Source of the DNA: Escherichia coli
Lineage (GTDB): Bacteria; Pseudomonadota; Gammaproteobacteria; Enterobacterales; Enterobacteriaceae
DNA: 64,000 nt
Direction: 5' to 3' (one strand)
Assembly (NCBI RefSeq): GCF_041886205.1
Contig: NZ_CP169030.1
In this document: positions 55,290 through 55,703 of the stretch, in pieces
Layout: every line of letters starts with the position of its first letter
Position numbering within the stretch: the stretch's first letter is position 1
Program-made: the position numbers and the translations under genes
The notes under the pieces: model-generated
Database searches by the model: none
What the model was told of the DNA's origin: nothing
What the model saw: the letters and a program-made list of their open reading frames with translations, nothing else

Positions 55290-55703
55290 GGGATTTCCTC
55301 CGTTGTTCACATATTCCGCGACACCGGGCGGTGCCGTGCCTCCATCTTTGCCGGGCCTGCAGGGTTGCAAGGGCGCAAGGGAAGCCGCAGCCTGACGCAC
55401 ACGGCTGACGGGAGTTGGAGGGTGAGACCGCGAAATCTGAGCGGGTGAACGACCGGAAAATCACGGCAGACGGGAAGGAGGGACCGGGTGACCGCAGCGG
55501 TTCACCTTACCTTGCAACCCGCCCGCAGAAGCCCGGCTACGATGGAGGCACGGCACAGCCCGCACACGACGCTGAGGCTACAGAGTTGAAAACCCACAAG
55601 GCCATGCCCCGCATGGCCGGGTAAAGCGGAGCCGCCGGCGACTTCCTTTTGCTCTGTCCGGGGACAGGCAGGAAAAGGCGGAGATTTTTCCCCGCCAGCG
55701 TCA

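Follow-up and report, generated by a model that had tools for sequence, protein, structure and literature searches.

According to the main text of PMC12672017 (NAR, December 2025), the IncI1 plasmid pESBL carries six single-stranded DNA (ssDNA) promoters: the class 1 elements ssi1-3, which are of the Frpo type, class 2 elements located 5' of klcA and of ardA, and a class 3 element 5' of the methylase gene M.EcoGIX. The same text reports that their transcription starts, mapped by 5' RACE in transconjugants, fall within the hairpins, and that classes 2 and 3 are also kept in F. A subsequent preprint (10.64898/2026.01.09.698686; bioRxiv, January 2026) names the ssDNA promoters ssp1-3 and describes how ssp2, between yffB and yfgB (ardB), stalls complementary-strand synthesis until UvrD resolves it. 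Elements of classes 2 and 3 are already published and experimentally characterized in F and pESBL; the analysis below concerns their counterparts in another plasmid and a short sequence motif that the two classes share.

The window, the 64-kb stretch of DNA analyzed here, belongs to an F-like conjugative plasmid, with Rfam matches to the traJ leader and FinP at 39.3 kb, to CopA and to two sok RNAs, and with 43-bp sopC repeats at 59063-59878. The F-type nick-site sequence GTGGGGTGTGGTGCTTTT lies on the + strand, and the + strand is therefore the transferred strand (Table 1). All leading-region genes are on the - strand, and are thus templated by the transferred strand, of which the 40.2-59 kb portion is the first to enter the recipient. 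This region includes four large repeats that are 84-96% identical to both class 1 (Frpo) elements of F. An exact 17-base stretch, GTGGCTGTATCAGCCC plus one further base, occurs in the tra region at 31086-31102 and also in three of the class 1 repeats (at 45058, 50446 and 53701); at such a length, this sharing could be due to chance.

Two non-coding gaps of 414 nt each stand out in the same region. Gap 1 (55290-55703) separates the stop codon of a 276-aa ORF from the klcA ATG at 55289, and gap 2 (57887-58300) separates the stop codon of a DUF1281 gene from the methylase ATG at 57886; neither contains a credible ORF. The description of these stretches as GC-rich and structured in the initial annotation was borne out by composition and by folding. 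Their G+C contents are 64.0% and 64.5%, compared with 52.3% for the whole window, and as + strand ssDNA they were predicted to fold at -105.9 kcal/mol (gap 1, z = -5.3) and -111.5 kcal/mol (gap 2, z = -6.1), in each case with 0 of 100 shuffles as stable. When the published sliding-fold procedure was repeated (300-nt windows of the transferred strand, 40.2-59.1 kb), the six strongest structures were the four class 1 repeats and the two gaps, at -86 to -95 kcal/mol relative to a mean of -49.5 kcal/mol. The class 2 site (55320-55619) reached -86.7 kcal/mol per 300 nt, the criterion for a large stem-loop being below -75, and the class 3 site (57900-58199), at -95.4 kcal/mol, was the strongest 300-nt window of the leading region. 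A weaker transferred-strand structure (-71 to -73 kcal/mol per 300 nt) was also seen between class 1 copies, at 48660-49079.

The multiple hairpins previously noted in both stretches were recovered as the large hairpins, a small hairpin in class 2 and terminator hairpins (Table 1). The energies of the RNA-sense and transferred-strand folds of the gaps are similar, and minor variants scored against a wobble-free consensus did not reveal the folding strand (G-T versus A-C counts of 12 v 13 and 9 v 24). Counts obtained with wobble pairs allowed had seemed to favor the transferred strand (113 v 18 and 271 v 23), and were rejected: the bias vanishes with the wobble-free consensus and is an artefact, since the structure had been derived on the transferred strand itself. 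An Rfam search of the gaps returned no family at threshold. A sub-threshold match to the Erse small RNA (RF02757; 57925-58123, + strand, 25 bits against a gathering score of 138) spans the inner class 3 hairpins and could reflect either a distant relative or chance; it is not interpretable, and a literature search on Erse gave nothing.

Comparison with the characterized elements indicates that the two gaps very probably represent, in this IncF plasmid, the class 2 (ssp2) and class 3 (ssp3) ssDNA promoters of IncF and IncI1 leading regions, based on homology to tested elements together with folding. Gap 1 is 88% identical over 410-418 nt to F ssp2 (L002:10340-10750) and to the region upstream of klcA in pESBL, and 88% identical over 360 nt to the region upstream of ardA in pESBL; gap 2 is 95.7% (pESBL) and 95.8% (F) identical to class 3 over 409-414 nt. 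The positions agree as well: gap 1 lies in the leading region directly 5' of klcA/ardB and gap 2 directly 5' of a leading-region methylase gene, both with the transferred strand as template. Gap 1 further shares with class 2 a long hairpin with a 15-16-bp G+C-rich lower stem, although the window has a less common mid-stem variant, with arms TTGCAA/TACGAT rather than TTGCAT/TAAGAT. Gap 2 shares the branched hairpin of class 3, and differs from the pESBL and F elements in that the downstream methylase is frameshifted and that the variable base of the motif is A instead of the usual T. With class 1 (Frpo of F and ssi1-3 of ColIb-P9), of which the window holds four copies, the gaps have in common the kind of device and the genomic setting, but compared with these four copies neither gap has the Frpo/ssi similarity that defines the class; local alignment scores of 24-28 are near the shuffle range, versus 38 for the motif described below. 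The initial annotation had proposed a second kind of ssDNA promoter, apart from the four large repeats. The identities of 88% and 96% to published elements support that proposal in its main point, but the gaps represent two classes rather than one, and the motif that was to unite them lies outside the promoter hairpins. The suggested alignment across F-like leading regions likewise found both gaps, and the motif, in F and pESBL.

Table 1. Features of the two structured gaps and their surroundings, in window coordinates.
Feature	Position	Strand	Basis
F-type nick-site sequence GTGGGGTGTGGTGCTTTT	40156..40173	+	sequence match
Class 1 (Frpo/ssp1) repeat, copy 1	42297..42871	-	homology, fold
Class 1 repeat, copy 2	44805..45379	-	homology, fold
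Class 1 repeat, copy 3, upstream of ssb	50193..50767	-	homology, fold
Class 1 repeat, copy 4	53448..54021	-	homology, fold
klcA/ardB antirestriction gene, proposed to be driven by the class 2 module	54864..55289	-	Pfam PF03230, E = 1.8e-26
Class 2 (ssp2-type) module and terminator of preceding operon, upstream of klcA	55290..55703	-	88% identity, fold
Class 2 large imperfect hairpin on transferred strand	55325..55562	+	predicted helices
Candidate rebuilt promoter, 3' arm: -35 TTGCAA (55512-55517), -10 TACGAT (55538-55543)	55512..55543	+	inferred
Small conserved hairpin GGCCATGC/GCATGGCC, between motif and large hairpin	55600..55618	+	fold, homologs
Motif copy 1, RNA sense AAAGGAAGTCGCCGG, upstream edge of class 2 module	55635..55649	-	homolog alignment
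Intrinsic-terminator-like hairpin closing preceding operon	55677..55696	-	predicted
N6/N4 DNA methylase gene, M.EcoGIX-type, broken	57204..57886	-	Pfam PF01555; alignment to F, pESBL
Class 3 (ssp3-type) module and terminator after DUF1281 gene, upstream of methylase	57887..58300	-	96% identity, fold
Class 3 large branched hairpin on transferred strand	57946..58170	+	predicted fold
Segment GCCGG-GCUCCUCUUUUUAC, predicted to pair with methylase ribosome-binding region (57887-57905)	58198..58217	-	read-through RNA fold
Motif copy 2, upstream edge of class 3 module	58213..58227	-	homolog alignment
Terminator hairpin ACGGGCGG/CCGCCCGT after DUF1281 gene, followed by T tract	58240..58259	-	helix and sequence

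Both gaps are kept in more than 5000 plasmid records, and a search of 5426 complete E. coli genomes located class 2 in 3702 of them, at 8992 places in total. The two modules are better conserved than their flanking genes (mostly 90-100% per column versus 60-90%). From its base upward, the class 2 hairpin has a perfect lower stem of 16 bp, an internal loop of 3x3, a further stem of 7 bp and a mid-stem that varies, and its tip is weakly paired; between the window variant and that of F and pESBL the sequence differs along both arms while the shape of the hairpin is kept. The small hairpin between the motif and the large hairpin also keeps its stem among homologs, with a varying loop. A promoter scan of either gap found no canonical -35/-10 pair, and we infer the candidate boxes of class 2 from their place on the 3' arm, where F and pESBL have TTGCAT and TAAGAT. 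The TAC of the putative -10 TACGAT lies within an internal loop, and the spacer is 20 nt in the window, which is atypical, versus 15 nt in F. If these boxes are real, transcription would start near template position 55337 and leave a leader of about 48 nt.

The class 3 hairpin branches into three sub-hairpins above a lower stem made up of 12 + 11 + 4 bp; its best promoter-box candidate gave only 7 of 12 matches, and no boxes could be placed. The methylase gene downstream was correctly recognized at first sight as frameshifted: alignment to F and pESBL places the loss of one G near 57694 (AAAAAAGAC/T in F/pESBL versus AAAAAAAC in the window), which splits the gene into ORFs of 66 and 160 aa. 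The frameshift may reflect either a genuine pseudogene or an error in sequencing a homopolymer. Many records, including those of F (L002:7785-8090) and pESBL (L005:4395-4706) and of many other plasmids, annotate a hypothetical protein of about 100 aa across the class 3 region, and the region might accordingly be read as a coding sequence. This is very hard to reconcile with the 64 distinct copies compared, in which the ORF measures 103 aa (n = 30), 70 aa (n = 15), 59 aa (n = 3) or 108 aa (n = 1) or has no start codon (n = 15), and in which the variable columns are spread 26/22/24 across the three codon positions and thus show no third-position excess. In the window the ORF is only 70 aa long. 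We consider a coding role extremely improbable, and the annotated protein is probably spurious.

The DUF1281 ORF next to the class 3 module (58301-58780) is only 159 aa long and matches positions 1-98 of a Pfam model that has 177 positions; since its homologs have about 300 aa, the gene is truncated or rearranged in the window. In metagenome contigs L200, L233, L184, L183, L196 and L172, a class 3 element was also found directly upstream of the DUF1281 gene (start MPNWCSNRM...), in some cases accompanied by another class 3 copy 5' of the methylase. In the main text of PMC12672017, class 3 is described only for the position 5' of M.EcoGIX, and relative to that text the position upstream of DUF1281 appears to be new.

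By analogy with F and pESBL, the + strand would enter the recipient during conjugation with its 5' end first, from the nick at about 40165, and each gap on the entering strand could fold into a hairpin of about 230 nt whose stem would rebuild a duplex usable by the host sigma-70 RNA polymerase. A duplex rebuilt in this way would allow the klcA/ardB and methylase operons to be transcribed before the complementary strand exists, and their expression would end once the DNA is double-stranded. The class 2 hairpin may additionally hold up synthesis of the complementary strand until it is opened by UvrD. Our own contribution to this scheme consists of homology, position, strand, folding, boundary behavior and natural chimeras; the transcription starts, the dependence on ssDNA and the roadblock are carried over from the two papers. 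Elements of classes 2 and 3 would in this way determine when an incoming resistance plasmid first expresses its genes, those for anti-restriction and protective methylation, and are therefore relevant to IncF and IncI plasmids crossing strain barriers, as is already established for F and pESBL. The term leader, under which the gaps were first described, is inappropriate if transcription begins within the hairpin, as it does in pESBL.

The window contains exactly two copies of the 15-nt motif CCGGCGACTTCCTTT, both on the + strand and one in each gap. Both copies noted in the initial annotation are real, although the second lies one base further on than the 58212-58226 given there, and the similar distances to the start codons are confirmed: in RNA sense the motif begins 360 nt before the klcA ATG and 341 nt before that of the methylase. 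With about five other isolated exact 15-16-mer repeats in the window, chance alone could account for an exact 15-mer repeat in 64 kb, and the two copies might be read as a coincidence. The best local alignment between the gaps, however, extends over a gapped 27 nt, AAAGGAAGTCGCCG(GC)GGCTCC(G/T)CTTT, with a score of 38; in 1000 shuffles the scores were 20.5 +/- 2.4 and never rose above 35. It is the sole significant similarity between class 2 and class 3, and the motif is absent from the class 1 repeats of the window. The motif also stands at the same place in F, in pESBL and in dozens of metagenomic copies, and in an ascertainment-free comparison, in which one copy lies on a contig found via the other, the extended pattern was intact in 24 of 31 class 3 and 26 of 30 class 2 copies. 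On these comparative data we rejected a chance repeat, which has next to no probability left.

Among homologs the consensus is AAGGA-N-GTCGCCG, followed by 1-3 variable bases, GCTCC, one variable base, C, 0-2 bases and TTTAC. At the variable N (the seventh base of the 15-mer and the sixth of the core), any of the four bases occurs in class 2, and class 3 copies almost always have T, the window's A being the only one among 68 copies; the 15/15 identity is hence a local accident of this plasmid. A metagenome scan with a 23-base pattern, stricter than the 17-base pattern used on genome contigs, returned 148 instances, comprising 88 of class 2 and 60 of class 3 and no other kind. The 17-base scan of genome contigs yielded real plasmid copies at 3 of 120 loci, the rest being chance matches in G+C-rich genomes. 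Near-identical IncF/IncI leading-region DNA turned up in species-representative assemblies of unrelated taxa (L040, Streptomyces morookaense contig139; L054, an Oscillibacter MAG; L061, an Oscillospiraceae MAG), where it most likely represents contamination or mis-binning. Conservation climbs sharply at the motif, or in class 3 about 15 nt earlier, in the terminator T tract, and from there to the start codon remains at 90-100% per column. The motif is no more conserved than the remaining module, and conservation alone is therefore no proof of a separate function.

Searches of transferred-strand DNA folds, RNA folds and loop complementarity gave no pairing partner of the motif that is common to both classes, and a loop complementary to GTCGCCG is present in class 3 only. 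In the predicted fold of the class 3 read-through RNA, the segment overlapping the motif pairs with the methylase ribosome-binding region with probabilities of 0.8-0.99 in the window. A GGAG-CUCC pairing that would mask the Shine-Dalgarno sequence is predicted in 13 of 16 diverse homologs (p = 0.68-1.0), including copies upstream of DUF1281, where the ribosome-binding region is different; the CUCC lies four bases after the 15-mer, or two after the 13-base core. These observations would fit an alternative in which the gaps are mainly structured mRNA leaders, whose RNA folding controls translation through masking of the ribosome-binding site by the motif-adjacent CUCC. The equal stability of the RNA-sense and transferred-strand folds is compatible with such a role, and part of the class 3 masking helix relies on G-U pairs, which form in RNA but would correspond to A-C mismatches in transferred-strand DNA. 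Against it, the class 2 variants have no consistent ribosome-binding-site pairing, and masking therefore cannot be the shared role of the motif; terminators are already present upstream; and since the starts given in the main text of PMC12672017 lie within the hairpins, the promoter's own transcript would lack the masking segment. We therefore regard the mRNA-leader explanation as unlikely, and RNA masking as at most an added layer for class 3 and not the main function. As such a layer to the ssDNA promoter, the motif in class 3 might supply an anti-ribosome-binding-site segment that silences read-through transcripts, a model in which the methylase could stay silent from read-through and yet be expressed from the ssDNA promoter.

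The position of the motif points in another direction. It lies outside both hairpins, on the 3' side of the stem base along the transferred strand (by 73 nt in class 2 and by 43 nt in class 3), and is therefore not the promoter itself; in RNA sense, the preceding operon's terminator comes immediately before it. The sequences upstream of the modules are diverse, with at least seven contexts in class 2, at least six in class 3 and at least 12 overall, and their junctions with the module coincide with the motif or fall a few bases from it. In many E. coli copies, the alignment begins only at query position 55-56, corresponding to the motif's first or second base. Two natural chimeras, plasmid pF11-3 (L126; NZ_CP184146.1, 14880-15120) and contig L184, combine the upstream flank of class 3 with a class 2 module, and in each the crossover falls within the motif; both have lost the entire methylase operon, and klcA directly follows DUF1281. 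These two cases demonstrate that crossovers also occur at the motif. We favor the view that the motif is a conserved element marking the module's boundary, that it moves together with the module and that recombination uses it as a junction; in class 3 it would in addition supply the anti-ribosome-binding-site segment described above.

Whether such an element does anything of its own is a separate matter. The motif may simply be microhomology at which modules recombined, kept by descent and gene conversion and having no function, and we consider this a serious possibility, if somewhat short of an even chance. It would account for the crossovers inside the motif, for the junction formed by a degenerate copy in contig L183 (see below), for conservation at the level of the rest of the module and for the missing common structural partner. 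It explains less well that the blocks AAGGA, GTCGCCG, GCTCC and TTTAC are split by a free base and by a 1-3-nt spacer of varying sequence, a pattern more readily explained by constraint on the blocks than by a recent copying of the whole tract, or that the at least 12 contexts all end so close to a single point. These features leave room for a more speculative proposal, to which we give rather less weight than to microhomology: AAGGA-N-GTCGCCG-N1-3-GCTCC-...-TTTAC might be a functional 'upstream anchor' shared by two otherwise unrelated classes, that is, a factor-binding or insulating element that would set the start of the module and silence read-through once the plasmid is double-stranded, and that would also be a preferred crossover point for swapping or deleting promoter-gene cassettes. 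If the motif is functional, it could offer a handle on the insulation and shuffling of modules. Relative to the main text of PMC12672017, the edge motif appears to be new and undescribed, and so do the module boundaries and natural methylase-operon deletions at or within a few bases of it. Overall, the locus is of modest interest: the elements are known, and what is new is a small detail, namely the edge motif that the two classes share and the way it behaves at module boundaries.

A degenerate third motif, AAGTGTGTCGCTGTCGCCGG in RNA sense, is found at 58941-58960, in the gap (58781-59062) upstream of the truncated DUF1281 gene. This conserved gap is 92% identical to F and its fold has a z of only -1.96; the degenerate motif lies within a long inverted repeat, at about 58836-58861 against 58975-59000. 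In contig L183 the class 3 hairpin comes exactly after the degenerate motif sequence, a placement that marks another junction, inside GTCGCCGG.
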